64,000 nt of DNA from Microthyrium microscopicum (taxonomy: Eukaryota): the NCBI GenBank assembly GCA_010405405.1, contig MU004231.1, forward strand, positions 4,400,689-4,464,688, given 5' to 3'. A program made the translations under genes and the position numbers. Below, piece after piece: positions 25,342-64,000 of the stretch (within the stretch, counting starts at the first letter, position 1; every line of letters starts with the position of its first letter). The notes under the pieces are model-generated. The model was not told the origin of the DNA, ran no database searches, and saw only the letters and a list, made by a program, of their open reading frames with translations.

Positions 25342-25862
25342 GACGCACAAGTCGCGAGCGAATTTGAAGTCAACATATATCTCTCATAAAAAAATGAAAC
25401 ACTGCAAAAGGTTCTTGCAAAGCTTTCAGTTGTCTAGGTCCATAATAAAGTGCCGACGTCGGCATGCTTAAATTCAAGGCGAAGCAATAATCATGCTTCT
25501 GGCCAACAATGGCAGGCAGGAGGCTTCGTTTTCCAGCAAATAAGTGGGGGCGTGACGACAAGGACAAGCCTTGACTAACAAAAGTCATCACGTCATAAAA
25601 AGCAAACAAGAAATTGGATTCATGGCATAAATCTAGTCAATTTCGTCTATCTGTAGGAACTTGTATGCTTTATCAAATTCAGGTGCTACTAGATATCTGT
25701 AGTTGTTTTGACTGCTAGCATTAATAGCTAGGGCGCCCTCTACGCTGTCAGTCCCGCCCAAGAGAGGGCGGCTCACAACATTCTAACTCCTTTGTTATAT
25801 CTCGTCAAATGCTGTGAAGTTATATATTGGATTCTTCAATTCTGCGCAGAGTAGTTAAAATA

Positions 25863-37484: not shown

Positions 37485-40400
37485 TCATCCTCTAAACCCC
37501 AACAACCGCCGTCCCCCAACTCGTCTCGCACCATTCCCATCTCCAAGATCAATACTCTGCATCTCCGCACTAATCCGATCAACATCACCGCCCATCCGCG
37601 CTCCATACCTAACCACACTGCCCCCATCATCCAACGGGATCTTCGCTGGTAACGGAGGCGCGCTTCCTGCTCCATTACTGCCCCATGGCGAGAACTCGTT
37701 CTGCGGCGCATACTCGTTCTGTGGCACATATCCATTCTGAGGCGAGTATTCATTTGTGGGACTAGCGCCCCATGACCCTCTGCTGCGCTCATCAACAGCC
37801 ATACTTTGAGGACGCGCAGGTTTCCGTAAACGATTTCGCGTCGAGCGGGGCTCTTCGTAGGGTTCTGGCGCACTACCGTAGACACTATGTCGGGTAGGAC
37901 GGACATTGGACGCGTTGCAGGAGACGTTGACTGCGATACTGCTGCTACTTGCGCCTGGGTCTCTTACACCTGGATCTCGACCGCCTAGAGCGCGGGGTCG
38001 AATGGTCGCTAGAATACGACGGGGTTGTTGATCGGAGCGGGAGACTGGCTCGGGTGCCCAGGCGGATGGCGGAAGCGTATCGGATGGGTCTTTGGTTGGT
38101 GAGGATTTGGGGACTGGTTCTGGAGCCCAGGAAGTTTCGGGCAGACGGTCCGAGGGGTCGATAACGTTGCCGTGGAAATCTACTATGGGTCCCTGGGGCG
38201 CTGAGGCCTTGGCAGAGGGAGTTGCGGGGTTGAGGACGGCGAAGGAGTCGGGAGAGTAGGCGGAGAATGCGGGACGGCCGTCTGAGGAGATTGGGCGAGG
38301 GGACACGGATTTGCGTGTTGTGGGTGTTCGCGCGGATGGCCGTGGGAGGCGGTCTGTTGAGCTGGGAGTTGTGGGTTTTCGGGGTGAGATGGCGAGGGGC
38401 TTGATGAGTGGTATTGGGTCGTATGATGAGGCATGCATTGAGTGAGGGTGGGATCGCTGCTGCTGGTAGTTATGGTGGCCATTGGGCGAGCTAGAGAGGT
38501 TGTGTTCTTGCGAGAGTGGATGGGGTTTCGTCGGCGAGCTGTTGAGATTGGTGGTAGAGTTGTTCATAGAGTGCGGCGAATAGGGCGGCGAGCAGCCATA
38601 TGGTGAGCGCTGGACTGGAGGATATGTGGGCGTGTGATGTGGCTGATGGCGCGAGTTTCGAGAGTTGGAGCCAGTGGATGATACCGAGTGGTAAGAATCT
38701 CGACGATCAGGCGACTGTCCATAACGGTCGAGGCCATCACTCATCGGGGTTCTGGGAACTTCCTTCCGAGCTGGAGTTGAAAAGGACTGTTCCTGGGGAT
38801 ATCCATAGGATCTGTCTTCAGAGAAACCACGATGCCGCTGCAACGCCATGTGATCTGGCTGCGGGTCATGAGATCTGGTACTCTCCGACTGTCGCTGGAA
38901 AGATTGATCATCCCGAAAACTCATTCTATCATCTTCGGGTTGATGATATCTCGACAACGACAACTCGGATCTAGATGTGAGATGCCCACGGACTTGTTTT
39001 CTGTTATCGACTGGGGAATTGGAGAATGAACCCCCCCTTTGCTGGTCTTGAGCTTGCCAGTCGCTATGGTTCTGTCCGTAAACAGGGGACGAGTTCCAAT
39101 CGTGGTTTCCTGCCGCAGACAAGGTGTTCCGGTGAGCAGGTGGGGGTGGTGGTGGTGGCTCTTCATGAGGCATATCCTGAAAGTCATCCTGACCGTCATT
39201 ATGGTAGTTTGACTCGTTGCGGTACTCCTGACTAATCTCTTCATAGGATCTCAAGCCCACGGGCTGATCAAGTGGTGGCTCATGGTTTGGGATGTACTGG
39301 TCGTGCTGGTCTTCATACTGTGGTTCCCAGTCATTGTGCGATTGATGAATATAAGGATCAGTTTCAGCGTGGTGGAGCGGAGGGTGGCCAGACTCCAGAG
39401 AGGAATGGCGACCTAAAGCTGCGGACGCTGACTGGGAGTGATCCATCGGGGGCGGTCGATGAGGCTCTGGATAATCATTCCTGGCTTGACTACGTCTTCC
39501 TGGGGTACCATCTCGAGATCTAGTCATTGGTGGCAGTTGAGGCAGAAAGTCCGCGGGATCATTGGGTATTTGATGACCCGATGCGGAAGACACATAACTA
39601 GTGTTTTCGTAAGGATCATCATGCTGATGATACTCAGCACCAGGTTCAGCTCCATAGTGTTCAGGGCCTTGATCGTCATTGTAATAATCTGGGTGGTCCT
39701 GTACAACAGGATCTTGTTCCTGGTCGTAAAATTGATTAGGGTCGACTGACGGTTGACGATATCTGTCAGCTGGCTGAGGCATGTTATTATTGTATGCCGT
39801 TGACCTATGACCGCTAGTTGTTTGCTCGATTGCTCGAGGTTGAGGAGGCGCTCCAAGCTCCCGTGGTCCAGATGCAAACACCCGCGGGCGTTCAACGGAT
39901 CCCGGATTTGACGGCAAAGGTCTCCGCCGAACAGGTGGTGTATTATTCCTTAAGCTTCCTGCTGGGCTTTGTTCGTCTGATGGCATTCTACCGGGCGATT
40001 TCTTTGGTATTGGTTTCTCGGTCTTGGGGCGTGAATCGTAATAGGTGAGTTCGAGTCTGACTTCTCCAGCATAGCGCCCCTTGCACTTGAGGCCTTGCCA
40101 GAGTTCATGTTCACCACCACCAGGCACAATGATATCCTTGAGATCAACAAAGGCCTCCCCGATCAGCTCCGTTTTCTTTCCTTCATCGAATACGGAGACT
40201 TTTAGGGCATAGTAGTCGGGCGACTCGCGAACGAGAAATCGAAGTTCTTGGTCCCTATTATGAGGTTAGCTAGGCTGCAGCGACGAATACTCGAAAGGCG
40301 AACTTACCATCTCGGTGTTTGCCCACCCCGTTTATCGGGATTTGTCTTTTGGGCCTCCTTGCCCAAGCGTGCGCTACAGTAGGGATCTTGTTTGCCAATG

Positions 40401-42195: not shown

Positions 42196-43333
42196 ATGGC
42201 CCCTCCTGTGGTAAGCAAATAACCTGATATTGCCATGTTTTGTCGGGCTTCCCGTCCACTCAACAATCTGGTGTTTTGTTGTTATATAACGATGCCGTGG
42301 ATACGTTGATTGACTACTAATTTATGCGTTTTTTCAGACGCCGAATCCGCGTCGTTTCTTGCTCAATAACCGTGAAAATGGACGTCCAAAATCTACCCAA
42401 AGGACACCTTTCCAACCATCAGCTCTACGCAATGCAACCCCAGCAACGCCAATTCAGCCAAGGACTGAGGAGTCTATCAGAACACAGGACCAGACTCGAC
42501 TCAAACAATTCGCACAGACGCCCAAGTTCGTTTCTCAAGCCACTAGGACCGCCGAAAAAGCTCAATCGCATACCATCAAACCTCCACCAGCTTTGCAACG
42601 ATTGGAATCTCTTGATAGTGATGGAGATGCCATCCAAGAGCTTTCACAAGACCAAACCAGTGATCCCTTGCTAGAGTCTCATCGAGCGGATGGCCATGAA
42701 GAAGAAATGCTTTTTGACATTTACCAACCAACAAATCACTTACCACCACAAAGCGACTCTCCAGTAGCCAAACGTCGCCGAATTTCTCACGACTCAATCG
42801 AGCCAATGCAAATCGAGGGCAGGACGACTTCTCCCCCGAGTTCTCCTCCACTACTTGGCGGATTGAACTCTGTCAAAAGATTTCTGCCAAGGACGACTAT
42901 CAATTCTACGGTTGATTCCACTCCCATCTCTCACCGACCATCATTTGTTCTACCCGCAACTTCACCTGATACCAAAGATGTAGATCCTCTTCCATCCCAC
43001 TTTTCACCACATCGAAAATCACAGCATCTGATTCAAGGCGGTCTTGCGGATACAATGCGCGCCCATATCATAGACTTGACAGCTGGTAGCGCCCATTCGC
43101 ATTCTCATCGACCCAGTACCTGGAAGTTCCATGTATCGGAAGCGAATGCACTGCCATCCATGGCACTTGTCAAAGGAACTATGGAGAATGGCAGGGAGGA
43201 GCATCTTCTTTTGGCCAGTCAAGGCTACTTGGTCAAATCTGGTGATACGATATCCGTAAAAGGAATCAATTGGGAAGTAGAATTACAAGATAGGAAGTGG
43301 ATCGTGTGTATTGACTGGAAGGTTGAGAGATGA
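42196..43333 (+). CDS. Uncharacterised protein (exons 42196-42210, 42338-43333)
   Basis: ATG GCC CCT CCT GTG|GTAAGC..TTTTCAG joins in frame to the 324-aa ORF. Disordered N-part, 'FSPHRK...GGLA' motif and a beta-rich C-terminus. Confidence 0.7.
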
Positions 43334-44176
43334 AGTCAGACCAGTTGGCATTCCTACAAACGAGGTTGGTAGGCAAAGCCGAACTCTGTCAATCCATCCA
43401 ATTATCTGCTGAACCACAGCTCCATGCTTGTCATCATGGTACCATTTTTGTGAAAGCGTTCCCGGGCTAGGCACGGTGCTCGGTGTTGAGCCTCTGATGT
43501 GCCGAAACCGCTCCGACGAAAATGCAAGGATACGATACAACAAGCAGCGATCATCCTTAGCAGTTCTTCTTCAAGCAATCTTTATTTTGAACAATGAAGA
43601 TAATATATCTCTGGTAGTAATATCAAAATACTTCAGATGGACCTAAAGAAGGACTAGGGGTTGGTAGACAAGCGGTACTATATATCGGAGCAGTAAAGCA
43701 GTAAGAGTAACCGGCGGTGTATCAGGCTGAACCCACATATGCCAACTCCAACATGTCGATCTTTGGGACGAATCCGCATTCAAGAATCTCTAGACCATGC
43801 AGCGGAAACCAATCCATGGCGCTGCCAGGGTGCAGTTCGCGCTGCCTTTTGAGCTAAGTTCAACAAATTGCCACTATTTGCCATGCATACTACTGCAGGT
43901 TGTGGAAACAATGACAGCAATTGGACTACAAAAACATGTTATATGAGCATTTGTCTGTCCAGGTGTGGGATTTACAAAGCCCAAAAATACTCTACATACT
44001 CGTTCTTTCCTAAAGTCAAGGTAACTAACGATATAACACCACTCCCACGTTGTGACACCTCAAGGATCCAACTTTCTACTCCGATTCATAATTGAACCCG
44101 CCAAAACAAATTATACTTCCGGCGGACCTTGTCCACGAGGAATATCAGTACTGGTGTACACCTCACAAATCACACA

Positions 44177-46071
44177 ATGGCTCGCTTTGGCAAACCAAAG
44201 CACCCGCCAGTATCATGGTCCGAACTACCTCACAAAGACCAACTCCTCCTCCTCATCCTCGCCCGGTTCTCGGAGCCACTCACAATGTCATCCATTAGAT
44301 CCTACATGTACTACCAGCTAAAATCATTTGACCAAACCCAGTCCGATGCCGCCATATCAAGTCAAGCTGGCTACATGACATCGATATTCATGTTTGCACA
44401 GTTCTTGACAGCATTCTGGTGGGGAAGAGCGGCAGACTCGGAGTACTTGGGACGAAAACGGGTGCTCTTGATCGGATTGATTGGCACAGGGATTAGTGCG
44501 ATTGGCTTTGGGTTCAGTACTAGCTTCTGGATGGCCATGGGTTTTAGGATGATCGGTGGTATGTTGAATGGGAATGTTGGTGTTATGCGGACTGTAAGTT
44601 GATCCTGAACTGTTGACATGTTCTTGGGCTAATTGATGGTAGATGGTTTCTGAGATGATCAAGGAGAAGAAGTAAGAATCGTCAGCACGTTTATGCTTGG
44701 GAGGATACTAATTCGCGACAGATATCAATCGAGAGCTTTCATGCTTATGCCGATGACAGGAAACATTGGGCAAATTATAGGGCCAATAATAGGAGGATTT
44801 CTGGCTGACCCGGTCTCCAACTATCCAGGATTGTTCGGCAAGAATTCGTTCTTTGGAGGAGATAATGGAGTTCAATGGATGATCCACTATCCATATGCTC
44901 TACCAAACCTACTGAGCGCATGTTTCCTGATAGGATCGGGATTAATTGTGCTCCTGGCTCTCAAAGAGGTAAGAAGCTCTGCAGAATATTCATAAGCACG
45001 TACTGACCGCTTTAGACCCATCCTGTTCTCAAGGAGCGACCAGATTGGGGTATCGAACTTCGCAAACTGATCATGAAAAAAGTCTTCAAACGCCAGGAAC
45101 AGGATATGAAATATATGCCAGTCCCAACCGACGAGTCAGCCTTCAACCCATTCACACCCGAGGTAGAGTTACAAGAGACTCCAGTCTCCTCGCCCACAAG
45201 GATAGCACCACGACCACCAGTAATTCGCAAAAAGACGCCACAGAAGCTTCCCTTCCGCCGTATCTTCACTCGAAATGTTGTGCTCACTCTCTTATCTCGT
45301 GGACTACTGGCCATGCACGTTGGAACATTCAACAACTTGTGGTACATATTCCTTTCTACGCCACGCGATCCTGAATCCAATAGCGGATCTAGTGGCTTCC
45401 GCTTCAACGGCGGTCTCGGACTTCCTCCTAATAGGATCGGAATCGTACTGAGCATCATTGGCGGCCTCGGCATCGCAATGCAGCTGATTATATATCCGTC
45501 TACATCACAACGATTCGGCACTATGATCTGTTATAGAGCGTCTCTGGTATTCTTTCCGGTCGCTTACTTCCTGGCTCCTTTCCTTGTGTTGCTACCAAGC
45601 AGTTCTCTCCCACCACTTCCTGCGTCAGGCTTCATCATCTGGACTGGCATTCTTTCCGTTCTATTTATATGGATTTTCGCCAAAACATTCGCCATGCCGA
45701 GCGCTGTCATCCTCGTCAACAACTGCTGTCCTCATCCGTCCGTTCTCAGTACCATTCACGGTATCTCGCAATCTGTGGCTTCGGGAATGCGTATGTTGGG
45801 TCCGGTGATGGGTGGCTGGGGTTTCGCATTGGCGTTGCAGATCAGACTAGTCATATTCCCATTTTGGACCATCATGGTCTTATCAGCGCTCGCGGTAGTC
45901 TTCAGTCTAGCTCTCACTGAAGGTGACGGACATGAGGTCAAACTAGAAGGCGAAGAGGAGGAATTCGAAGAAGCCGAGAAAGATGCCGCAGAAGCCAATG
46001 ATGTTGAGGTAGCTACCGATGAGGCTTCGAAGCGCGATGGTCTGGGCTTGAAGGATGTACATACACCTTAG
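44177..46071 (+). CDS. Major facilitator superfamily transporter (4 exons)
   Basis: MFS motif A 'WWGRAADSEYLGRKRVLLIG', 'GMLNGNVGVMRT' and multiple TM helices. Introns near 44595-44642, 44672-44720 and 44969-45015. Confidence 0.92.
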
Positions 46072-46191: not shown

Positions 46192-47772
46192 TTATTGCAT
46201 AATCTCTTGATAGTCTTGGCTTCCTTTGAGACATTTCGATATGTGGATCAAATGTCCTCGTTCTCGTCGGACGTAAGCGGCGAAACATGCTGCTCCTGTT
46301 ATCACTGCGCCTAGGCTGATGAAGACTGGTATCAGGAAATCTTTTGGCTGAGGAAATATCACGGTCGATGTGAAGGCGAGAAGTTCAAAGAAGTTCTGAA
46401 GAGCTTGTTCGGAGGTGGAGAACTCGCCACGCTTGTCTTCCGCTGTAGCCTGTAGATCAGATGATTAGCTGATAGAGCAAGTCAAAGGAACGCTCCAACG
46501 TACCTCTTGGACAATATCTTGCACTGCCAGATCTACAGCCCAAAGTCCCAATCTGCTCAAGATAATTCCGGCCGTCAATGCCGGGCCAGCTCGCCCTGGT
46601 GTGCTCTGCAGCAAGGCGAATGCAAACACCGCTCCCGTCAGAGACAATACTTGAAAGTTTATTGACCACAGACCAGCTCGGACGTCCCCCAAGTGCTTCA
46701 TGAGTGGTGGCGCAAGACAGGTGGCAAGAAGCTCAGAGATGACGGCTGCAAATCGGAAGAGACTGACTGAAACAGCGTCGAATCCATTGGAGAGCATATA
46801 TGCTTGCCATTGGGATGCGGTGGAGAGAACAGTGAGATAGAGCAGTGAAAGTGAGAAGGACGGTAAGAAGGCTGGTGAATGCGTGTAAGTTTTCCAGGCT
46901 GATAAGCAGTTGGATCTGTGGCTGGTGCCCTTTTGATGCTGCTGTTGTGAGCTTCGAGTTGCTCCTTCAGAAGCTTCCTCGAGTTCTACAGTTTGTCCTA
47001 GACTGTCATCTCTTTGTTGCGCTCTCACTGCCAGTTCTGGAACGGCACTGTAGACGCGAGCAATAGCAATGTATTCTGCAAGTACCGAGCATGTTGTTAG
47101 ACCCAACAACACTAGAACCGATATCAGGGTTGAGTATGCCTGGATCAATGAAATAAACACTGGCGCTGCTAGTTTGCAGAATAAGTCGATTCTTCGCATT
47201 GCAGCATTTAGCTGTGCTCTGTCGATGTCCAGGCTTGTAGCTATGACAATTGCCCCTGCCCAAAGTTAGCCATTACATTTTTCTCTAGTACCATGGCACT
47301 TACAGTCTCTTTCAATGGCTACAGTATTTGCAATAGAAGCGAGTTTCTCAACACAGGCCAACAGCACAGTGATTGAAAAGCATACTCCAAAGAGCAACCT
47401 TGGTAACCCATGATCATTGTTAGAATTGGTAATCATCAACAAGCCAAAAATTGCACAAGAAGTAGCGACCGGAATCCTCTGCCATATTATCGATGCTCGA
47501 ATAACAACTAGTCGATTTGAGTGATCAATATAGCTTCCGATTTTGGATGAAAGTACTGTGGCCGCAAATGCGCGTACCAATGCATAAACTGAGGAGTAGA
47601 AAAGTGTGCCTGGAGTAATACTGATGATGAACAAAATTGCGCCAAATTCGAAAGCTCTTGAGTTCCAGACGGATAGGAAATGAGAAACATAGAGTCTTCG
47701 AGTTGTGGTAGAGACTGAATGCTCTCTGTGGGACAAAGCATCGTCATCGAATCGATCTACCATCCCGTCCAT
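46192..47772 (-). CDS. Ferroportin (FPN1/SLC40)-family metal exporter (3 exons)
   Basis: 'RLYVSHFLSVWNSRAFEFGA','NTVAIERD','NAAMRRIDLFCKLAAP','LLYLTVLS','SRLGLWAVDLAVQDIVQE','EQALQNFFEL','RRERGHLIH'. Confidence 0.9.
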
Positions 47773-48204
47773 TTCACTGAAATACAGCTGGGGTTCGTGT
47801 TGATCAAACTGCGTCTTGCTCGGACTAGACCAAGAAGCATTTCGGAGTTAATTTATGTCGATAGTAGAAGGTCTTCGGTTGCAAATACTATGTACATAAT
47901 GTATGTAGAACTTGAAGTAGGGTTTAAGCGAAAGCGGCGGATATAATCGTATGGTCAGCACACCATAACTTCGAGTTTACTCAAACTCTTGGTGGTTGAA
48001 AAAATAAAAGCAAGACTTTCGTTCGAAGAATAATGGGCGAGTTTTAACTTCCAGTAAACGTAGCACGTAAAACTAATTTATTGCATAAAAGAACAAACGC
48101 TGCTTCAATTTCGTGTTTTGCAATCGATGTCAATATTGTTGTCGCTGGTCTAATGAATACATTTAGCTAAGAGCAATGGCTTCCTTCAGAAGTTAAACAT
48201 CCGT

Positions 48205-49850: not shown

Positions 49851-51957
49851 TGTGAGATGAGAACTAAATCAATCAGATGGTAGTCTTATATATCAGAATA
49901 TCGCAGGTTGTGGGAGAGCAGGCTGCTGTGTAGGCAACAGCACATCAGGAGGTTGCGAGGTTAAGTTGGTGACTTCATTCGCCAGCCAAATCCTTCGAGT
50001 GCAGGGTGGTCGTACATTATCATCCTTCGCCACTTCTTCATCAGTAAGTAATGTAGCACAACAATTCTTTGGTGAAACTTTGCTTTTCAGTTCAAATCGC
50101 ACGGAATGGAAAATATTGAAAGTCATATTATTTACTTAGTGAATAATGAAGGTCGAACCAATTCAAATGCCTGTAAAAGGTACATGAACTTTAGGTGTTG
50201 ATCACCTTGAAGCCCTGCTGGAGCCTTTGATTGAGAAGTGGAAGACGCCTAATACGCACCTTTCGTATCTATTTTGATAAAAGGTTCTGAAACGATACAG
50301 GAGCCAAATTCGACGAATTGTCATCACAGATTGTGTCAAGAAAATCAATGAAAGGGACATTTTAAGCAGCATTTTGTGACATTATTTTTTGTCATTGAAT
50401 ATCCGTGGGCACGACCTAATATAACTTATCCCAAGTATTATGCAATATGAGCAGCATGTTCTTCTGGATTCCTTTTCTCGCGCTTTGACAGCTGTTGTTG
50501 TAAGCGATTTATACTCTATCCCTTGGCTGATATTTAAACAGGTTGAGATGGATAAAACCACAAAGCTGCTTGAAGAATATAGCTACTAGTATTTATTTCA
50601 CTATTTCCCAATAACTTACTCAACGGAAATTCAGTTTTGTGAGCTAATACAATGCTCGAAGCAAAAAGAAAGGTTCAGTGATGCATTAAGGTGTCAATTC
50701 ACAAGCAAGCCCTACAGGTTTTTGTTGGTTGATTCATCACGTTTATGGTAACAGGTCGTCTGATGTAACTCATTGCTTTGCTAGATGATCTAGATCGCAG
50801 CCGAGATCCTCTACCGGGAATACTTCCTTTGGCAGGTGGTTATCCAAGTTCACTGACAGCAAGACCTGGCTCAACTTTCGCCAATCAAAATGTCTAATAC
50901 TCTGTACAGGCAAGGAAAAGAATCCAACTCAGTAGCCAGGAGTCGTGTCATTGGCTCTTTATCTTGCTTGTTTGCAGATTACTCCTCATGTACAATGTTC
51001 GCGTAGAGCAGACTCCTATATGCAATTCGCAACTGCACCTCCTTTTCGAGCCAGAAAGCATCTTTGTGTTTGGATCATGTGGACAGTTCCAGCTTTCAGG
51101 ATATGCCATAAAAGATTAACGCCAATCCTGAGGCATATTCTGTTCATCCACGGCCCGTGGCGAAGCCTATTTCACATCATGAGGATTTACTGCGTGCCCA
51201 GATCGCCATGATCCTAACGTCGATCTGGCCCTTGTTCAACAGATTTCACAAGGAACTTCTTTGGTTAGCAAGCTACATAAGTCATGAAGATCAGAGACAT
51301 TAAGGTTACCCAATGATAAGAACTTTTCTAACCGATTCGAAACGCTAAACGACCATTAATTGGACAACACAAATCCTTATCGATCTACGAATCGTAGAAT
51401 CTACGCGACTGCCAAGTGTAACTTTTGTCACCTTCCAGGAGCTTGATGTTTTCCGGGAGGTCGGTTAAATTGATCTAGGAACCTATCTGCATCGCCTTGG
51501 TTCACAGCCACATTTGCGGCCGATAAGATGAATCGCGGACGTCAACTCAAGGTCTTGTAGCGGAGGATGTCGTGGGGCATTCTTATGTGACTTCTAACTA
51601 CAAGACACTGTCAAGGGCGAGGTATAGACAATATTTGTACTGTGGGATTGAAGGAGCACCTATGTGCAATAGTAAAATATGTCACTGAAGCTCAAGAGGT
51701 TGCACGAGTCGGTGACTCGACCCCAACGGCCATGATATCGCAAAACGCTGGACGCCTTCTCGACTTGTGCTAGTCGAAGAATTGTGAATACTACTCACCT
51801 CTTTCCGATCACTTGAAGCACCAGAAGCTACTGCAACATGATGGTCCATCCAAGTGATCGTGAAAAGTCTATATAATCGAGGTTATACCAAGATCAAGTC
51901 TAGGACATCCAAGTCAAAGTTCAATCATTCCACCTTTCAGACCAATCCGTTTTCGAG

Positions 51958-52938
51958 ATGTTTACCAAATTTGCACTTACAGGTCTTTTGGCTTCTGGTG
52001 TTGCAACCGCTGCCACACTACCCAAAGCAGATGTCTGGCAACCAGAGCTCACTCCTAAATGGCAAATTATTCTGTCCAGTACTTTGAACAGCGCCTCTCG
52101 AATTGTCCCTTCCGATGCAAAGGTCTGGGATTTGGATGTGTTCGAAACGAGTGCTAGTACCATTAGCAAGCTTCAAGACGCTGGCTCCAAAGTCATTTGC
52201 TACTACAGCGCAGGAACTTCTGAAGAAGGTCGCAATGACTTGGGTGGTCTAACTAGCAGTGACTACGGAAAAGGTCTACCTGACTGGCCAGGAGAGAAGT
52301 ACATCAACATCAAGAGTGATCGAGTTTGGAGTGTCATGAAAGGCCGCATCGATATGGCCAAGGAGAAGGGCTGTGATGCTGTGGACCCCGACAACATGGG
52401 TAAGTTGCATTCAGTAGCTATAAGTGTCGTCAATATCTAACTTACAGCAGATGGCTACTCCAACGACAATGGCCTAGGTCTTACGCAAGCCGATGCTATT
52501 GCTTTCGTCAAGAAGCAATCGTCTTATGCCCACTCTCTAGGCATGTCAATTGGATTGAAGAACGCTGAGGAGATTCTTGATCAGGTTCAGGACTCCATCG
52601 AGTTCGCTGTGAACGAAGAATGCACCAAGACTGGACGATGTGCCTGGTACAATAACCTTCTCGCTGCTCAAAAGCCAGTCTTCCATATCGAGTATGGCTC
52701 CAAGAGCGACTCCAACACATATTGCCTCAAGTCAATGAGCAATGGTAACCAGTTTGCGACTGTTATCAAGCACCTGTCTCTTGACGGCTGGGTGGTAAGC
52801 ACTATGAATCGTAATCATGAGTTTGATACTGACAGCTCGTTTTAGGTATATTGTGATGGTAGTGAATACACCTCTAGTGTGGCGGACAAGAGTGTTGATA
52901 ATGGAAATGAGATTGACAGCGGGAACGAAGACGCTTAG
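51958..52938 (+). CDS. Secreted glycoside hydrolase family 114 (endo-alpha-1,4-polygalactosaminidase-like; 3 exons)
   Basis: Signal peptide, then 'KWQIIL','WDLDVFE','KVICYYSAGTSE','DWPGEKY','KGCDAVDPDNMDGY','IGLKNA','FAVNEEC','KPVFHIEY'. Confidence 0.9.
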
Positions 52939-53230: not shown

Positions 53231-54182
53231 CTAACTAGACACATTTTGTTGTGCCCCATTACCGTTGCCCCAGATGCTCGCAGAGAAATCTCCATACCGA
53301 AATACTTCTTTCTTTCCACCTAGTCCTGAACTGCCTTGACCTTTCTTGAGCACACGCCGTCCAACGAACTCACGTAATACCTCATCAACCTCTTCCTCGG
53401 TCATTGGCGAGCCAGACTCCGGAAGAGTGGTCAAGAGCGCATCTCGTAGCTCATTCACGTCGATTTGACCGGAGTCGTCATCGTCGAAAGCTCCAAATGC
53501 ACCCATCAGCTCATCTTGTCGGCTTAAATGAGCGAGATCACTAGTGAGAAGTCCAAGGTATGCGCCAAGATTGAGAGCAGGAACGCCGGGTGGGAAGTAG
53601 GTTGAAAGAGTGGAGGATGAGTTGTCAAGGCCAAGTTCAGCGAGGGCTACTGCTACGTCTCCCGGAGCAATTTGTCCACTATTTGAGCGATCCAGTACAG
53701 AGAACGATTCTCTCATGGTATGCAGATGTTGTGGAGGGATAGACGATAATGGATCGGAGTTGTTGCCTTTCAGCGATGTTGATGTGGTACTCCGTACTGG
53801 TGCAGATGGTCGCGTAGTTGCTGCTGGTGGCTGTGGAAGACCTCTAGGCTTCACATCTTCACTTGACGGGAGTCGGAACGGTATCGGGGACTTTGAAGGT
53901 GATGGCGCTGGACTCCCTTGCTTAATCCAGGATCGGTCTGTTGTTGGTGTAGATCGCGTATCGGCAGGCGGAGGATGAGATGGCGTGGCTTGCTTCAGCG
54001 GCGAGCCTTGAGGTGTAGGTGCGCGTACTGTAGAGGGAGATCGTCCCAATGGGGAATCAGGACGTCGGAAAGGCGAGGCGCGTTGTGAGGTAAAGGATAG
54101 CGAATGTTTGGAGGGTGATGATGGATTAGACTAATAATTCTTAGCAGAGTACAAATTGCCTAAGTGGATGTAAACATACCAT
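53231..54182 (-). CDS. EF-hand protein, probable myosin regulatory light chain with Ser/Pro-rich N-terminal extension
   Basis: 'MRESFSVLDRSNSGQI' and 'LMGAFGAFDDDDSGQIDVNELRDAL'. The first exon is the ATG alone (ATG|GTATGT), with an intron at ~54131-54179. Confidence 0.8.
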
Positions 54183-54593
54183 GTCTTCCGAGTTATTCTT
54201 GTCAGGTTAATCGTATCTGGGGTTTTGGGAGAATATGCTGCTAAGAACTTGAGATAGCTGGTTTCGTAGAAGTTTTGGTGTTGTATGGTAAACAATCAAG
54301 ATGAAAGCTCCAAAACACCATGCCTTTCTGGGCTAGCTCGGGTTGATGGGCTGACGCGCGGCTAATCCTTGCGCCCTGACCCCGTAAGTAAGCGCCATCC
54401 ACAAGGCCGAGTTTACATCTTGTTCCAGTAGAAGGAATAAGGGGGATTTGATTCACACCAACCTCCGCCTCTTACATCTTCGCTGTTGAACGGTATACTG
54501 TCGCTGCATAAATACAACCCTCTTCCTTATCCAGAATAAAGAGAGCCTGATCTCGATGTCGTATTGCAAGCGAACGTCGTAACCTCTGCCGCA

Positions 54594-57107
54594 ATGGCTG
54601 CCCCCGTGGCCCCGCAATTATATCGCCAGGCATCTTCAGCCTCCAATGGATCTGGCCTGCGAACGAATGGACAGAGAAACTTTGGAGATCAGGATGGCTC
54701 GCCCCAAGCTCTATCACAAAGAGGTTCCGCCCGGTCATCAATCGTGACTCCCGCGCCCTACGATGGCCCGCACCTTCGATCGCAATACCCTGCCAACTCG
54801 ACAGAGAATCATGTCGAGTATATCCTAGTGGCATCTTTCGATATCGACCGTGGTTCGATCATGGAGCATCAATACCCTGGGCCCATTTCTGGAGATGAGA
54901 ATATGCTAGCAGAGCTCATGTTGCCAGATCAGGCACATGTAAGAAGTATGGACTGGACTATCTTCTTCCTTCACAAGGATACGACCGCTGAGGAGGAAGC
55001 AAGAGAGGAAAGAAAACGCGTTAGAAAGATTAAGAAACGGCGGCGTGAGTTGGAAAAGGCTGGCGAGCCAATACCCGACGACGAAGATCTTGACCTCGAA
55101 GGTCTGGATCTTGGAGACGATGATGATGAAGATATGTACTCGGAGTCTACTGCAGATGATTCCGAAGGGCCTCCATTGATATATGTTCTCAACCTTGTGA
55201 ATACAAAGCAAGATCAAACGGTGAAGAGGCGAGTTCTCATCATCATATCACAATCTTCGCTAACGAGAACAGAGGTGCTATTGTCAAAGCGATGGCAATA
55301 TGTACGAGGCATTCATTCCTCCACATATACAAAGTAAGAATGACTATCAAAATGTGTTTTCTCTCACTAATCAGATCAGCCGTTATTACTTCTTGCGCTT
55401 GAAGAATATTTCAGAGCGCCGGTGGTAGAAACATTAGCATCTCTATACAACGCCGTCAACTCCATGGACTTGTCGCTAATGCCTCGACTTTCAAGCCTTG
55501 AAAGAAACATATTACAGACGAGCGATGTCAAAGACATGTTTGTAGAGAAATTCTCTGTTATGATTCAGCAAAAGATGGCAGATGATGAGCATCGACTCTC
55601 GCAGAACTCTGTGCCCTCGTCCACGGATTCACCAACTCCTAAAGGCAAATATCAACCACCAAGAGATACACACGAATTTGAGTCTCGTGTGCAGTATAAT
55701 GGGGTGCCGGTACCTATCAAAGTGCCAGTCGCTATTACCCCTGAAACTGTTGGCGACTTTTCTCTAGTAAAGCTTATATCGACATTTGCAACACCACACG
55801 CTTCTTCTCCACAACCATTTACTATTCATCCTCACTTGACCACATCAGGGCCATATACTCATCCAATAATTGTTTTGATCAATGCCCTTCTCACCCAGAA
55901 GCGTATCATATTTCTTGGTCACAATCAGCCCTCCGGAAGCGTTGCTGAAGCGGTACTAGCAGCTTGTGCTCTAGCGTCGGGTGGTATATTAAAGGGGTTT
56001 ACACGACATGCGTTCCCTTACACAGATCTCACTAAAATCGATGATCTTCTCAAAGTTCCAGGCTTTATTGCTGGTGTCACAAATCCAGCATTTGCCCACA
56101 AACCCGAATGGTGGGATGTGCTCTGCGATTTGCCGACTGGCCGGATGAAAATCAGTCCCAAAATTGAAGGCGCACCTGTCACAGAAGGATTACTGTTCTT
56201 CCAACAAAATGGACACGGAGCACATATTGCAAAAGAACATTCGGTACTGAACGGAGATAGCAAAAGCCATCCATCGAATGATCCTACTGGTGACACTGTT
56301 TTCATGGATTCAGTAATGAACTCCATTTCAAATCGTCATGGAGAACCGGCTGTGCGAAACAAGTTTAGAGCTTGGGTCCATCGTTTTACACTAATCGCGG
56401 CCGCTTTTGAGGAAGTCGTTTATGGTGCCTCTGCTCTCAATATCGGTGCTGCGGAAACAGATGAAGACATGTACAACTACGGGGTTGGTGGTCACGGCCT
56501 GGTCTGGGCAGACGAACCCACACGGATGCGAGAGATACAGGCGAATGTCGGAAGAGTTGAAGGTTGGCGCCAAACTCGCTCATATTACTCTCTCATTCGC
56601 GATCTGGCTAGAACGTGGGAAAAAGGAGAATGTGTTAGGGGAATCGACGTGGGCTATCAGGTCGACCGCCTCAGAACATTGCGCGTTGGTGATGCCGGCG
56701 CTGCGGATATCTACATGGCTTTAGCCAGAGCCGTGGAACGTGCAGGCGTTGATTTTGACGACCCAGATTATGAAAACCCCCTGGACCCTGACGACCCGGA
56801 TAGTGAAGATTGGCAACTAGACCCGGAAACAGAGGTGAGGCTACTCAAACGGGAGAAGGCTCGTCATGAAGTCATCAATCAATTGCTCTGTGTCATGCCT
56901 GAGAATAACGGTGGCTTGTTCTATATAGGGCTGGGCCTGTTCCACAAAGACGTGGCAGTCAGACAGGCAATTGTTGGCCTCCTTGAGCGGATCAATGCCC
57001 ATGAAGCCGGTAGGCATTTCTGGGCCCAACTTGGAAGATTTGCGAAATTGGCTTTCTTTCGAGTTAAACGCGACGGCGAAAATCCTCAGAATAGAGCATC
57101 TGGTTGA
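54594..57107 (+). CDS. mesA: MesA/Afi1 polarity-axis stabilisation protein (3 exons)
   Basis: '[23 protein letters not shown]','[21 protein letters not shown]','[15 protein letters not shown]','[31 protein letters not shown]','RHAFPYTDL'. Introns at 55229-55272 (GC-AG) and 55334-55378. Confidence 0.9.
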
Positions 57108-57674
57108 AACAAATGGAGCGGCAATTCTATGCAATTATCCGGACACACAATAGCGGCAATCCGTGCTTTGACGGATTTGTCCATAATCTGGCCCTGTAGA
57201 TGAGCCTCAATCTATTCTAGCGTGAGAACAATGCGTAGATCATCTCATTGCAAAGGAGTTTCTCTTCTCTCGGCCTACTACTCTGCAAAATCAGACTTGG
57301 CCAGAAGCAGCTGTCTGGAACAACACCCGAGACGAAATATAGGTTGGCTCAACCAATGTAAGATTACAGTATTACCATACTCTATTTTGTTGCGATGCTA
57401 ATATTTGATTAACTCTGCAGATCACCTATAATACATACTATTCGAAATCAAGTCTCCCAGAATACCTTGATTTGCATAGAACTATCTAAACAACGACTGG
57501 CATGCAATGGCCAAGTCGTCAAATGAATCCAAATTTTGTACAGTTCGCTAAACACTTCCGGTACTTTCTTGCTCATCTTTCAGATGAATGGCAGATGTAC
57601 ACGGTTAATGTAATGCTCTCCTTCAACTCTTGAGCACATCATCTTCTCCCATCGCTTGCCAATGCATTCGTCGT

Positions 57675-59005
57675 TTACTTTGGGCAAGGTCCGTTACCAT
57701 CGTGGTTCACGTTTGTGGGGCAAGCATCTGGGCACGTTAGAATTGGCGCCAGCTTCATCGCTTGAGCAGCGGCTGATGGTCCGCTGATATGCTATTTGAT
57801 AATGCTTCATCACAATAACAATTCAGAAGATAGCAGGCTATGCCAGCGCTGATGACAATCGTGTATAAGATGTCTTACCATGACGTTTTTGGACCATTGC
57901 CTTTGGTGGGGGATGGTCATCGCCATCTGGGCCATGAGCAGCTCTTTTCGCAATCATGACGCAAGGACCATTACCATCGCTGCAGGAGGATTAGTTAGAG
58001 TATGTCCCAACACTGATCGCAATGGAAGTTGTCAAGCTGCCATGCTGCCAAGCTATTCTGTCTCTTTTGCAGAACAACAATGTAGCATGTCGCAAAAACC
58101 AGCGGGATGAGAACTTACTGTCTCTTCATGTTCGTGGGGCAAGCATCATGTCTCTTCATAATCTGGACGCAAGGCCTAGCACGTTGTCAGAATAAGATCA
58201 TGAGAAGGAATGACACAAGTTGACAAGCTTTGGGGAAACAAGGCAAATGTTACCAAATTGACACGCGCTGGGAAGACCAGGCGGCCAACTCGATACCATA
58301 ACTTGCTGAAAAATCATCCCAAAGTGTTTTGGTATGAGGAGACTTACCCATTACCGTCGTGACGCTTCATGTTTGTGGGGCATGCGTCGTGGCGCTTCAT
58401 GACCTGGACGCAAGGCCTAGCACATCGATTAGCAAAGATTCGCCAATGTTCACTGATAAAGTATTGTTGGAAACCAACACGCAAGAAAATGATGTTTTTT
58501 TCCTCCCGGTACGAGATCTCTCACATGTTGCAGTAGCCATAGAAGTTTCATGGGAGCCGCAACATGCTACAACATATATCAAAAGAAGATAAACTTACCC
58601 ATTACCGTCGTGACGCTTCATGTTTGTCGGGCATGCATCGTGACGCCTTGTTAGGGGCACGATATGGGGGCAAGGCCTGGCGGATCCGTTAGCAAAGGTT
58701 TACCAATGTTTACGCAAAGTTCTTCGTTGACAAATGTTCACCGACAAGTGTTGTGTTGCTGCAAGTCAGAATGCAAAGAGAAGACTATTTCTTCCTCTCA
58801 GCAAGACTGTTGCGCTCATAGCGATCACAAAGTGTTGTGAAAGCCGCAAGATGCCATGGTATCGGGACAAGAAGTTCTTGTACGGGGAGACTCACCCATT
58901 GCCATCGTGACGCTTCATGTTTGTTGGGCATGCATCATGAGGAGCGGGAGCGGCGAAGCTGCCAGCAGCGAGAACGAAGAGGACGACTTTTTGGAAGGTG
59001 TACAT
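57675..59005 (-). CDS. Secreted Kex2-processed repeat protein (KEP / peptide precursor), 155 aa, 6 exons: 59005-58896, 58676-58599, 58416-58348, 58175-58119, 57979-57879, 57727-57675
   Basis: All five introns have GT(A/G)AG donors, CTRAY branch sites and YAG acceptors. The spliced CDS is 468 nt with no internal stop: MYTFQKVVLFVLAAGSFAAPAPHDACPTNMKRHDGNGPCPHIVPLTRRHDACPTNMKRHDGNGPCVQVMKRHDACPTNMKRHDGNGPCVQIMKRHDACPTNMKRHDGNGPCVMIAKRAAHGPDGDDHPPPKAMVQKRHDACPTNVNHDGNGPCPK. Repeats differ mostly at synonymous positions. Confidence 0.92.
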
Positions 59006-62000
59006 TTTGGCTGATGTTTGTTGAATAGTTGTATGTTTGGTGAGAGAATGAACGTATGAGTAGGTCTACTAATGAATGAAAACCTTGATTCTTGGTGACT
59101 TGAGCATCGACCATTAGAAGGCGAGGTATGTGGTCTTATAAGTTAGCTCTTCGCGCCTTGGACTTTCCGTCTCGCGCTTTCGATTAATCTACGGACGTAC
59201 CCCGACTATGACACTAGCATGGTTTGATTTCATCGATTTGCCTTAATTCGTTAACATATAACTGGAGATGACGGCACCAAGAATTTAGGATTGATTAAAG
59301 CTTGGAGAAGAGTACGTCGTGGCGTGAGCTTGTTAAGGTATGCGATGGCCATAACGGTCTATGTGACAGGGTTCTTTCTAGGATATCCTAAGAAAAACTT
59401 TCATTTATACGCTCGCTTTGACGACGGGACCGGCTGTCACTGCGCTCGAAAGCTGAACTAGGTATGATAACAGAATCAACCTATGGTATGATTTGCCCCA
59501 ATATGTATCCTGCATAGTGAAAATTGCTCAAAAGCATACGCGTAAGGGAAAAACCTATTTCATCTTTCCACTGGATCTAATCCAAAGTTTATCCTTCATC
59601 TTGCAATACTTAGTAACTGTTTGTTGAAAAGGCTCAACTGATGAAGGGTGAGAGAAGAGTTTTCTCAGTGACTGCTGAATCAATAATATTTCCGTGTAGT
59701 TGATTGGGCTTGAAACATCTTGAAACATTCCAGAGCATACAGCTCGACGCGAAAGCAATATTAGAACCTGGGGTTCATACGCAGTACCCACAAAACCCAA
59801 ACTGGTTGTAGATAACAGGGTTAGCGTTTTAATCAACTTCAATCTTTCGTCTAAGCGTGAAGTTAATATACGATCTTCAAATAATGCTTTGACAATAACT
59901 CAGCAGTTAAGATACAGGGTTTGATTCTCTGACGGCAGTTTGAAAGGCATCAATAACAACCTCCTGGACACCGTACCTGGTTACTATAGCTTTGGTCAGG
60001 TACACGCAACAGGGACCAGAAACCTTTTATTTTGAGGTATTTGTACTTGAGACGGTTTACCTAGAATTAAATGCAGCTCTTCAATGATATTGATCAAGGA
60101 TCGAGTAATTAAGATATTCGTGCCTAAACCTATTCATCAAAACGTATGTTGGAAATACCTGCTTGTTTACGGCCTCAACTCTTGTCGTAAACCCACAGAG
60201 CTAGGTACATTATAGATGTTTATGGGTAGCCACTATGATCTAAAAGGAAATGATAGAAAACCAATGGTCTCTTGCGTCTTTCTGCACCCACAAAACTGCA
60301 GTGTGTCCTTGTGGCAAAGCCGCAATAACGCACGAAGTGGGCATAAATTATTTTGAGATCGCCACTTGAACGGGACACATGTAGATGCAGACTATGTCGC
60401 CAGCAATCCCTTGGAAGGGGGCGAAGTTGTATTCAAATAGCCTGAATAGACATCGTGGCGACAAACGTGGGAGATCTACGTTGCTAGCGAGCAGTCCCAA
60501 AACTCGGAAGACATGTGATATCTATTAAGGACTTGCCATGACCGAGATTCTTTAGATTTATCATTAGGCGCTAGTGTATGGCGCAAAGACCTCGCCACGC
60601 GTAAATGAAAATCTGGGGAACAATATAGGCCGCTTCGCCCTTCAAACTAGCCGAAACCACTGCTTGCAAAAATCTAGGAACCTCATCGTACGTGATGATT
60701 CACTTGGTCCAATAGACGTCAATGCTAGCTATAGCCCCACAATCTAGTCCGTATTGGCCTTGAGACTGGCGATTCCATGGCTTTGGAAACACCAAGTTCA
60801 CAACGTACGAATGATATCCCAGATATTCGGGCTCAAGTTTCCAGCCACGTGCTTATGGCTATCGTATTCGTGACAGATGAACAAAGTATGCGTGCGTATT
60901 ATTCACGCTCGATGAAATCAACAAGATCACGTAGCTGCTGCCTCTTGCATTGTCCTGGCCCCTCGAAGGGCAATATGGGCAAAAGCTTATACTCGACTAG
61001 AACTCAGGGCACGATGTCTAGTGCCACCAGTCAATGAGCATAATTGAACTGTATACTGCATTTGATAAGCGCATATCATGCACAAAGATCTAAACTTAGT
61101 CACGGGCACGAGATTCCAGACCGCCATAACAGGGGTTCATTATGGCCACACAAGGGGTAATTTGACAGCTATATTATGGTCTGTCCTGCCTTCGAATCCC
61201 CGGTATTATTCTTTCGTATCTATCGAAGATGGTGTTGTCAAAATATTCATGATCCTATCAGATCAAAGGGTCGTAAATATGCATTAGTGAATAGGCCATG
61301 GACTTTACCAACCTTGCAATGCGCTGAGTTACAATATAAAGTCCAGACTTTATGCTCATACTTATATGCCTTACAGTCACTGAAGAGTCAGGCGGCTGTG
61401 TTAGTAGGGAAATATACAGCTATCATATAACCAATCAGACTCGGTTGCGTAGGCTCCAATCTATCGCATTTCTCCTGGCATTTCTGGAGCGCAGGAGTAT
61501 GTATTGGTGATGGGTTGGATCATGAAACCACCTCCAAATCTCAAGTTCAGCCTGTCCTGATGGCAAACCTGAATCATTTTCGCTGCTTTGCAAATGAAAT
61601 AATTATAAACTTTCCTGGTTCGCAATAGAAGCAAAAGATCTTGCTTATCTATTCACAGTTTTCGAATGTTCTCTTCAGGTCGTGATTAGTGGCTATCAAT
61701 CAGTGAGCTCGCATTTATTGTTTACGACTCTCCACTTAAGAGATCTAGGTCACGAAAAGAAAGGGTTATGATAGGATAGAGTGTAATATTCATCCTATAA
61801 GGCTATAACTGAAGACAAGAAAAACTATTTCCTCTCTGGTAGAGCCTCCAGTCCTCCTCAGTTCGGCCACGAGCACCTCAAGGTCGGCTAGTGCACCACA
61901 ATATTGACATAATGCACATAGTCGATTGAGGATTTCCTCATCCCGACATCTTGAGGAAAGCATGCGATTGACTTCGATTTCAGCTGCTAGGTGTAGCATG

Positions 62001-63929
62001 CTGAGATCGCCGTGAATGGAAGTCTCGTACTGGTTTTGGCACATCACGAATGCTTAATGCTGTGCAATTGGCTGATTGGTTTGTCGTGGAAACTTCCCCG
62101 GCTTTGCCAATTAGTCAAGGTTCAACATGGATTTGAAAATCTACAGACATGACGATCAGCTTACATACCTCACAAAATAGAGACTTCACCCACTTTGCCA
62201 AGTGACCTTTTCGGGTATCTGTAGATATGTGCTTACAAGAGAGATGATAGCTTTTAGTGACTGAACTCCTAGAGGTAGAAGGTGCTTAAGTCTCTGAGTA
62301 CTACATTTTGTAGGATATACCATTGAAGATTTCAAATACGTGAAATGGTCAGTAAGTGAGAAGGTGTACATAAGTGTATAGTAGTTACTTGTTGTTTACG
62401 ACATGTATGGTTATCGCGACCACTAACATGACTTTGCTGCACTGCCATTCTTTTGTTATGATGAAAAAAATAGACCAGTAGCTGATGTCTGTCTAACAAG
62501 TCATTTTCTGAGCGCGCCTCGGAGAACCATTGGAAAAATATTAAGCATTGACTGTTTTCCAATATTCTCATGATTTGGCACTCGTAAGGCAGGCTAAAAG
62601 TCATCAGTTACTTCTGGATCAAGCTCCCACCTCACACTCTGGAATTACCATTGGCTTGGTGAATTGAGCAACACCACAGAGCCGCTTTATTTACAAAAAT
62701 CCGATGTGCCCGTGAAGAGGGAAGAGGAAGCGTGGTAGTCCACTATACAAGGCTGAGCTAGCATATGATTGGCTGAACTAATCTAGCTCCCTTAGTTCCC
62801 ACATTACTCTAATTCTAAGATTGCAGTAGCCTTTTTTCCGGTATATACTCCGTGATTGTTTTTGATCCGCATAAGATCCTCTATGACCTTTCTAGAAGTC
62901 ATAAAGAGGAAGAGCAGACTGGCTTACTTCTGGGTAACCTTCTGACTCCTGAGAAACGACTTTTGAACTTGTAGCAGCGCTGTCGTGGGCGAACTGGGTC
63001 TGGAACTCCTACAGCCTCGCCGGCACGACCAGCTTCCGTACTAGACTAGTTCGATACGCTACTACAAATACATAATTGGTCCTTTATACCATCATTCCTC
63101 ACGATCGTACATTATTGAATTGTCAAGACATATCTCCGATCACTCAAATTTCTGAGAAAAACTATGTTTACTCGCTGTGTCATAAGTGACGTACGCTCGT
63201 TGGCAAGAGTTAAACATTCCCGATGTTTCAGTGTATCCGAATGAAAAGTGGAGGCCGTGAAACGCGCAGGTCAGATTCGTTCTTATTTTTAGCCGCCACC
63301 ACGCCAGTTCGGGAAGTGGCCTTAACTTTGTTTCCGCATCAGATGGTTGTTGTTTTTCTCACGGAACTTGCCTTCCGTAATTGTTCGTTGTTATCGCAGC
63401 TAGATGTCATAGAACAGTAATATGTTACACATAATTGGCTAATGGATGTTGAATTACAGACAGGTCACGAAACCCTACAACAACACTAGTATTGCAAAAG
63501 TACCTAGGTATTGATTGCCGTTACGCGTAGCGATTGATGTTCTGCAGATGCTGAGGTAAGTTTGTAGAAAACAAGTGGAGTTATGTCAGATTTCTATTTT
63601 ACGAAGCAATGCGATTCGGTAACTTCCGTGCCTGGTCCTTGCATATGGCAGGATGGGGAAGGTTATGACGGGTTTTGGTTGTTGAAATCGCTTCGGGTGT
63701 TGCTCAGGGGCATCTTGGAATGGAAAGGATGTGATACTCAGCCACCTACGATTCATTGGTGAGACAAACATCACCCTATTTTCTGACCGAATCCAGTATT
63801 TGAAAAGAGCTTAAAGCTGCTTGTCTGCTGATATTGTTTCGGCGTTTCTGTTTTCGTATAAAATCTGCTCAAATCATCTCATTATATTCCCTAACTCTAA
63901 ACCTTTAAACTTGAGCTTATATCAACATC

Positions 63930-64000
63930 ATGGTTTCTTCAAAGATCTTTGCCGCTGCCGCGCTTGCGAGTATCGCGTCTGCCATTGACCATCAGGTCAA
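63930..64000 (+). CDS. 5' end of a secreted protein (truncated by window edge)
   Basis: catcATG context and TATAAAA at ~63857. It translates to MVSSKIFAAAALASIASA-IDHQV, a clear signal peptide. Confidence 0.65.
   Translation, partial: MVSSKIFAAAALASIASAIDHQV

Follow-up and report, generated by a model that had tools for sequence, protein, structure and literature searches.

Ece1 of Candida albicans, the source of candidalysin, and the yeast killer toxin K1 are secreted precursors that Kex2 cuts at dibasic sites; the peptides released from Ece1 are non-identical, and one of them is an amphipathic helix. A second body of work concerns the Kex2-processed repeat proteins (KEPs), which, in the sections on which we draw of the two surveys devoted to them (Le Marquer et al. 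2019, PMC6339444; Umemura 2020, PMC7329392), have in common a signal-peptide-like start, near-identical cores and the separation of those cores by KR or RR pairs. The 64,000-nt stretch of Microthyrium microscopicum DNA analysed here (contig MU004231.1, forward-strand positions 4,400,689 to 4,464,688; hereafter the window) contains on its minus strand, at 59005..57675, what appears to be a genuine protein-coding gene missing from the public proteome, and we consider it rather probable that this locus is an unannotated, orphan KEP precursor gene.

The gene, as modelled, comprises six short exons and five GT..AG introns whose removal leaves a 468-nt in-frame coding sequence (CDS) for 155 amino acids (Table 1). 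The start ATG (59005-59003) stands in a good context, caaaATG, the stop TAA lies at 57677-57675, and an N-terminal extension is impossible given an in-frame stop upstream at about 59066-59068. The original prediction had described six minus-strand exons of 53-110 nt with canonical splice signals, concealed within what looked like a dispersed repeat of the plus strand; exons and signals alike were reproduced (5/5 introns), and the plus-strand repeat proved to be the reverse complement of the exons, with a 38-nt family present five times and longer families present two to three times. No further occurrence of the repeat motif was found in the 64-kb window. Each of the five coding introns has a CTRAY branch-like motif just before its acceptor, and the CDS is richer in GC (0.54) than the introns (0.40-0.46). 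Introns 1-3 share one site of the repeat, in phase 2 inside ..GNG/PC.., and introns 4 and 5 lie at other codons, so that the five coding introns comprise three independent kinds of junction, every one of them in frame.

The evidence that carries the coding interpretation comes from comparing the repeat copies with one another. The HDACPTN and HDGNGPC modules occur five times each; together with the Met-Lys-Arg that follows four of them, their copies show at least 13 substitutions when compared, and 13/13 are synonymous, as against a chance expectation of 19.6% of single-base changes (P about 6.5e-10), which upholds the earlier claim that synonymous variation between repeats reflects selection at the protein level. 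In a shared block of 44 nt, none of the 14 amino-acid columns varies in the proposed frame, as compared with 3 to 9 variable columns in the other five frames. The introns are near-random to each other (identity per shorter intron 0.64-0.78 vs 0.61 +/- 0.02 for shuffled intron 2 against intron 3), and alignment between repeats still holds only for the exons and for some 45 nt that surround branch point and acceptor. This comparison of copies shows purifying selection on all six predicted exons, in the sole frame joined by the five GT..AG introns; introns 1-3, for their part, were evidently duplicated along with the repeat unit, and the locus is a tidy natural example of an intron copied together with the repeat that contains it.

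Cutting the 155-residue product at KR and RR gives ten segments separated by nine sites (eight KR, one RR), exactly as the original prediction had listed them: four HDACPTNM, four HDGNGPC-x(4-7), one Asp/Pro/His-rich 16-18-mer (AAHGPDG...) and one fused 18-mer, the last unit, which has no internal KR and keeps both Cys. There are 10 Cys in all, exactly two in each repeat unit, one per half. The mature part, of 132 residues, is dominated by His, Asp, Cys, Met, Pro, Asn and Gly; it has 1 Leu, 3 Ile, 7 Val and 17 Pro, no Phe, Trp, Tyr, Glu or Ser, and 10/10 of its Arg and 8/10 of its Lys fall in the dibasic sites. The N-terminus, judged by hand, places Lys6 ahead of a hydrophobic run (residues 7-17, where Kyte-Doolittle means over 7 residues reach 3.5), which small residues follow; with Ser and Ala in the -3 and -1 positions relative to A19, the -3/-1 rule favours a cut after residue 18 (..SFA/APAP..).

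[quoted passage not shown] Here we count 10 fragments and 9 sites, with the four HDACPTNM copies alone making up 32/155 aa (21%), four HDGNGPC-x copies beside them and a fifth, fused copy of each; the mature part shows no further transmembrane segment, and its few Leu, Ile and Val residues and complete lack of Phe, Trp and Tyr make such a stretch impossible beyond the N-terminus. The KEP-type architecture proposed earlier (signal-peptide-like start, ten segments, nearly all basic residues in dibasic pairs) is supported. Published KEPs with two motif types number 77/1193 in the part of PMC6339444 consulted, and the present gene likewise alternates two, with at least four copies of each. What sets it apart from the KEPs described in those sections is its six micro-exons, the intron inside the repeat unit, the single Cys per core and the predicted His-first products. 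As the portion of Umemura 2020 (PMC7329392) used here reports that 2560/7878 KEPs are stand-alone and that 78% have no DUF3328 neighbour, one more orphan stand-alone KEP would be unsurprising in itself. The word 'intron' appears nowhere in the main text of PMC7329392, and KEP catalogues built on proteomes could not have found the present gene, since it is missing from the predicted proteome.

The resemblance to particular members of this class is uneven. Dikaritin precursors (UstA of ustiloxin, phomopsin, asperipin) are likewise of KEP type, with KR-flanked repeated cores in which an aromatic residue, usually Tyr, is there for ether cross-linking; they are stated, in the portion of PMC7329392 to which we refer, to need nearby DUF3328 (UstYa) proteins and Tyr-containing cores. 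Neither is seen here, for the mature part has no aromatic residue and a Pfam scan found no DUF3328 and no tyrosinase, methyltransferase or other peptide-tailoring domain among 73 ORFs (open reading frames) of at least 60 aa between 49 and 64 kb, nor DUF3328 or a tailoring domain among those larger ORFs that were scanned elsewhere, 29 of the 122 with at least 90 aa in the window, which ends 5 kb upstream of the peptide gene and covers the neighbourhood on that side in part. The likeness to dikaritins that the original prediction had drawn therefore does not extend beyond the KEP-type layout. The units of the present precursor also differ from the products of Ece1 and K1: they are 8 and 11-14 residues long, have a negative or no net charge and abound in Pro, His, Asp and Cys. 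Overall, with His in first place, one Cys, frequently a terminal Met and no aromatic residue, the cores are unlike described pheromone, toxin or dikaritin cores.

If the locus is indeed a KEP gene, its product would follow the route of the yeast alpha-factor pathway as outlined in the sections of PMC6339444 at our disposal, where KR/RR pairs are Kex2 sites and XA/XP dipeptides are Ste13 substrates. The spliced mRNA would be translated into a 155-aa pre-pro-protein, from which signal peptidase would most likely cut after residue 18, leaving AP-AP before the first core; in the Golgi, Kex2 would cleave after each of the nine KR/RR pairs and Kex1 would strip the basic tails. A Ste13-type dipeptidyl aminopeptidase would then remove AP-AP, and also A-A from the Ala-Ala-His segment, after which all ten products would start with His. 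The route so predicted is that of the yeast alpha-factor precursor MFalpha1 and of the alpha-pheromone precursors (ccg-4/ppg1) of filamentous ascomycetes, and the APAP and AA of the present protein fit Ste13 as described in that part of PMC6339444. Products that are linear or carry simple disulfides are to be expected, given that the gene is stand-alone and has no tailoring genes nearby. The coding introns are apparently spliced poorly or conditionally, and whichever of introns 1-4 is retained, translation meets a stop codon immediately at its donor; splicing efficiency would thus set the peptide yield per mRNA.

Against a functioning KEP gene have to be set the RNA at hand, the length of the introns, the leader of the transcript and the lack of relatives. 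The RNA data are Logan contigs from two runs (X1 and X2) rather than reads, and contigs may drop variants. X1, the only run with most of the locus, holds 0.87 of its sampled words; its label is guessed RNA only, and we take it to be RNA because its contigs are without two canonical introns on opposite strands, 59200..59135 (-) and 57358..57420 (+), the first of which, being spliced, proves transcription from the minus strand, with a start above 59230 and passage through exon 1. X1 covers 59134-58598 (record 4), 58622-58347 (record 2) and 58371-57421 (record 1), with breaks solely at one 35-nt genomic repeat (58627-58593 = 58376-58342). The original prediction had proposed RNA across the five coding junctions as its test; no spliced coding junction was seen, and the X1 contigs cross both borders of 5/5 coding introns although the 5' untranslated region (UTR) intron is spliced. 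At junctions 1, 4 and 5 the spanning 31-mers are unique and a spliced path, if kept, would force breaks, none of which is present. The unspliced-specific 35-nt contig has a depth of 249 for two copies and the contig of intron 2 and exon 3 a depth of 131, so that exon depth there is barely above intron depth. Genomic DNA contamination is not the source of this intron cover, as the 5'UTR intron is without any X1 cover. The X1 sample shows that abundant unspliced RNA is present; that spliced RNA is absent does not follow from contigs.

The second run, X2, a soil metatranscriptome, contributes a single contig of 193 nt, which differs at 1 letter in 191 and lies on 57538-57728, over 3'UTR and exon 6. 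The alignment breaks off at 57728, at the final base of intron 5, which is a G here and would be a G in the spliced form too, and two letters remain unaligned; this end matches the pattern of a spliced exon-5/exon-6 contig, which we regard as a weak hint. The parts without cover (59135-59200 and above 59230 in X1, upstream of 57728 in X2) are not evidence of absence. The coding introns, at 139-219 nt, are two to three times longer than the two neighbouring introns that RNA confirms (63 and 66 nt), and no snoRNA or other known RNA accounts for this length, Rfam giving no match at E <= 1 over 57000-59600. The 5'UTR, moreover, contains out-of-frame upstream ATGs. One of these opens a 66-aa frame (58935-59135) that overlaps the main start codon, an arrangement that suggests translational control or leaky scanning.

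With regard to relatives, no protein that could be compared with the product is found in the collections searched, and hence there is no cross-species conservation to invoke, although unannotated orthologues are possible. Searched exhaustively by phmmer, 1.84 billion representatives yielded no true relative; the two matches obtained, at E about 4e-4, were rejected as unrelated long repeat proteins. The exon-1 stretch (a query of 41 aa, with 4 upstream codons included) gave no candidate of near length in a word-based protein search and, at longer lengths, 23 word-sharing candidates, none of them at E <= 10; the same stretch in a look-alike search of the ESM Atlas reached a best score of 0.78 with nothing usable. 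These searches agree with the original prediction, which did not recognise the cores. In metagenome contigs of the JGI, a degenerate DNA pattern for DACPTNMK found one match, which we attribute to chance as stop codons surround it. The neighbouring ORF 55371-57104 (578 aa), by comparison, is 100% identical to an NCBI protein of Microthyrium microscopicum, with relatives at up to 75% identity in other Dothideomycetes and at 84-86% among metagenome and Logan proteins; since the same collections contain this neighbour's NCBI protein, the peptide gene must be unannotated in that proteome. The five core strings had no match in the full-text literature, the listed papers on Microthyrium microscopicum included nothing on peptides, and a literature search combining KEX2 processing, disulfides and intron retention brought up nothing relevant.

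The competing explanations have to account for the same observations. It could be that, although the locus is transcribed, its coding introns are nowadays seldom or never spliced out; the product would be a 37-aa peptide of exon 1 (signal peptide, one HDACPTNM and a short tail) or nothing at all, and the downstream exons would be a recently silenced or decaying part of a gene that was once spliced. We hold this to be unlikely, albeit far from negligible: it agrees with the presence of all five coding introns in X1 contigs from which the 5'UTR intron has been spliced, with the unusual length of those introns, with a proteome that lacks the gene and contains the protein of its neighbour, and with the upstream ATGs, but it sits badly with substitutions that are synonymous without exception in exons 4-6 as elsewhere, which require that the downstream exons were translated in the spliced frame until very recently, and with splice signals that are intact in 5/5 introns. 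To this we add that the X2 contig stops at the intron-5 acceptor and that contigs cannot prove the spliced form absent. At the other extreme, the whole locus might be a non-coding dispersed or tandem repeat in which frames and splice-like signals arise by chance; the failure to find homologues, the shortness of the ORFs and the stop codons of the unspliced RNA could be cited in its favour, yet we find it scarcely credible in view of the synonymous-only divergence (P about 6.5e-10), a frame kept over five junctions of three kinds, a signal-peptide-like start after a good ATG context, transcription on the correct strand and the lack of any Rfam match.

Granted that the exons are translated, the protein may still be secreted without being cut, as a small, repeat-built, cysteine-rich protein with up to five disulfides and KR pairs that are structural. 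Small cysteine-rich secreted proteins are common in Dothideomycetes, and the even number of Cys, two per unit, and the retention of both in the last unit, which has no internal KR, would suit such a fold; nevertheless the Arg and most of the Lys occur only as dibasic pairs exactly at module borders, and a folded domain would hardly have 17 Pro among 132 residues and so few of the hydrophobic kind that make up a core, for which reasons we think this decidedly unlikely. An alternative that accepts the KEP architecture is that the peptides are mating or signalling pheromones, alpha-factor-like and sensed by a G-protein-coupled receptor. In its support stand the architecture itself, which is that of alpha-pheromone precursors, and a pair of upstream TGAAACA motifs, TGAAACA being, as we assume, the Ste12 pheromone-response element. 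The pair (59711 and 59721, some 500 nt on the upstream side of the 5'UTR donor; two copies against an expected 0.24, uncorrected P 0.03) is, however, a single 10-nt tandem duplication (59711-59727, +) and is not significant after correction for the ten motifs scanned. In that scan the sites of Mac1, Ace1, SreA, Zap1 and PacC were not above chance, and no regulatory motif for copper, iron or zinc emerged upstream. Some Dothideomycetes alpha pheromones do have two conserved cysteines, according to the part of PMC6339444 considered here. The same part treats the XA/XP Ste13 signature as the mark of alpha pheromones, whereas in the present protein it follows only one of the nine dibasic sites (KR-AA) and His-Asp follows the other eight; there is, besides, no Trp, two cores alternate, and the protein searches revealed no similarity to any annotated pheromone precursor. 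We accordingly give a pheromone little chance.

Returning to the KEP precursor that we favour, our leading guess as to the role of its peptides is that they bind soft metals (Cu, Zn or Ni) outside the cell; signalling is the other possibility we consider. An N-terminal His, Asp, Cys and a C-terminal Met suggest a ligand set for copper or another soft metal. As each unit has two Cys, one per half, a disulfide formed before Kex2 cleavage would give two-chain mini-peptides, the last unit staying uncut; K1, whose two chains are protein-sized and joined by disulfides, provides a precedent for the two-chain idea. Taken further, HDACPTNM-KR-HDGNGPCxxxM units might form their Cys-Cys disulfide in the endoplasmic reticulum and be cut by Kex2 within the loop, so as to yield a copper-suited peptide of two chains, each with a free His at the N-terminus, an Asp and a C-terminal Met; this would be a new kind of ribosomal metal-binding peptide of fungi, and a chalkophore-like system whose dosage is set by intron retention. 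We put this forward as a conjecture that will very probably turn out wrong; the literature found, judged by titles and the starts of abstracts, describes no ribosomal chalkophore of fungi.

The gene is unusual in that it is built of micro-exons, has an intron within the repeat, is missing from the proteome and apparently retains its introns, and in the chemistry of the cores that it encodes. A KEP laid out in exons of 53-110 nt with long introns can escape annotation entirely, even beside annotated genes, and given that catalogues built on proteomes miss such a KEP, the number and diversity of fungal secreted peptide precursors are probably underestimated. Conditional splicing, if true, would make the locus a simple model of how the dosage of a precursor is controlled through intron retention.

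Table 1. Features of the peptide gene and of its surroundings, numbered from the first letter of the window; records are X1 contigs.
Feature	Position	Strand	Length	Remarks
First 5'UTR exon, visible end	59201..59230	-		Transcript start further upstream; TATAAA at about 59409-59404
5'UTR intron	59135..59200	-	66 nt	GTACGT..CTAAC..AG; spliced out in X1 RNA, joint 59134/59201; plus-strand ends CT..AC
Second 5'UTR exon	59006..59134	-		Record 4 contiguous from 59134 to 58598; out-of-frame upstream ATGs
Exon 1	58896..59005	-	110 nt	ATG, signal-peptide-like N-terminus, APAP spacer, first HDACPTNM, KR, start of first HDGNG
Intron 1	58677..58895	-	219 nt	GTGAGT..CTAAC..CAG, phase 2; unspliced in record 4
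Exon 2	58599..58676	-	78 nt	
Intron 2	58417..58598	-	182 nt	GTAAGT..CTAAT..TAG; same repeat position as intron 1; unspliced in record 2
Exon 3	58348..58416	-	69 nt	
Intron 3	58176..58347	-	172 nt	GTAAGT..CTGAC..TAG; same repeat position as introns 1 and 2; unspliced in record 1
Exon 4	58119..58175	-	57 nt	
Intron 4	57980..58118	-	139 nt	GTAAGT..CTAAC..CAG; within the His codon of an HDGNGPC module, joining restores the motif
Exon 5	57879..57979	-	101 nt	Carries the sole non-repeat segment (AAHGPDG...)
Intron 5	57728..57878	-	151 nt	GTAAGA..CTAAC..CAG; within the Asp codon of an HDACPTN module, joining restores the motif
Exon 6	57675..57727	-	53 nt	Fused last unit and TAA stop
3'UTR	57538..57674	-	at least 137 nt	X2 RNA contig spans 57538-57728
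Afi1/SPA gene	54540-57107	+		Convergent with the peptide gene
EF-hand protein	53231-54130			
GH114	51904-52845			
AAA ATPase	in the neighbourhood			
Ferroportin-like (FPN1) metal exporter	46465-47847	-		Split in two ORFs; about 10 kb from the peptide gene, no link shown
MFS transporter fragment	44096-44602			
Putative nonribosomal peptide synthetase (NRPS)	11671-25383	-		More than 30 kb away; adjacent ORFs of 2808 and 1723 aa; 2 AMP-binding, 6 condensation, 6 PP-binding

The genes around the peptide gene are of ordinary kinds (Table 1). Elsewhere in the window, the ORFs of 2808 and 1723 aa look as if together they form one large NRPS, whose surplus of T-C pairs over A domains is, we presume, reminiscent of ferrichrome-type siderophore synthetases. 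Four further ORFs, 37485-40265 (-), 42314-43333 (+), 45016-46071 (+) and 7437-9125 (+), of 926, 339, 351 and 562 aa, match no Pfam family at E <= 0.001. The 4.7 kb upstream of the peptide gene (59300-64000) have a GC content of 0.39-0.46 and hold ORFs of at most 114 aa, and none of those with at least 60 aa matches Pfam; this could be a gene-poor region or could contain further hidden micro-exon genes. On the opposite side, about 250 nt past the stop of the convergent Afi1/SPA gene and within its 3'UTR, lies the plus-strand intron 57358-57420 (63 nt, GTAAGA..GCTAAT..CAG), which is spliced in X1; as the contig with this intron spliced extends into the peptide gene at its 3' end, an overlap of the two convergent transcripts is probable, at about 57421-57540.

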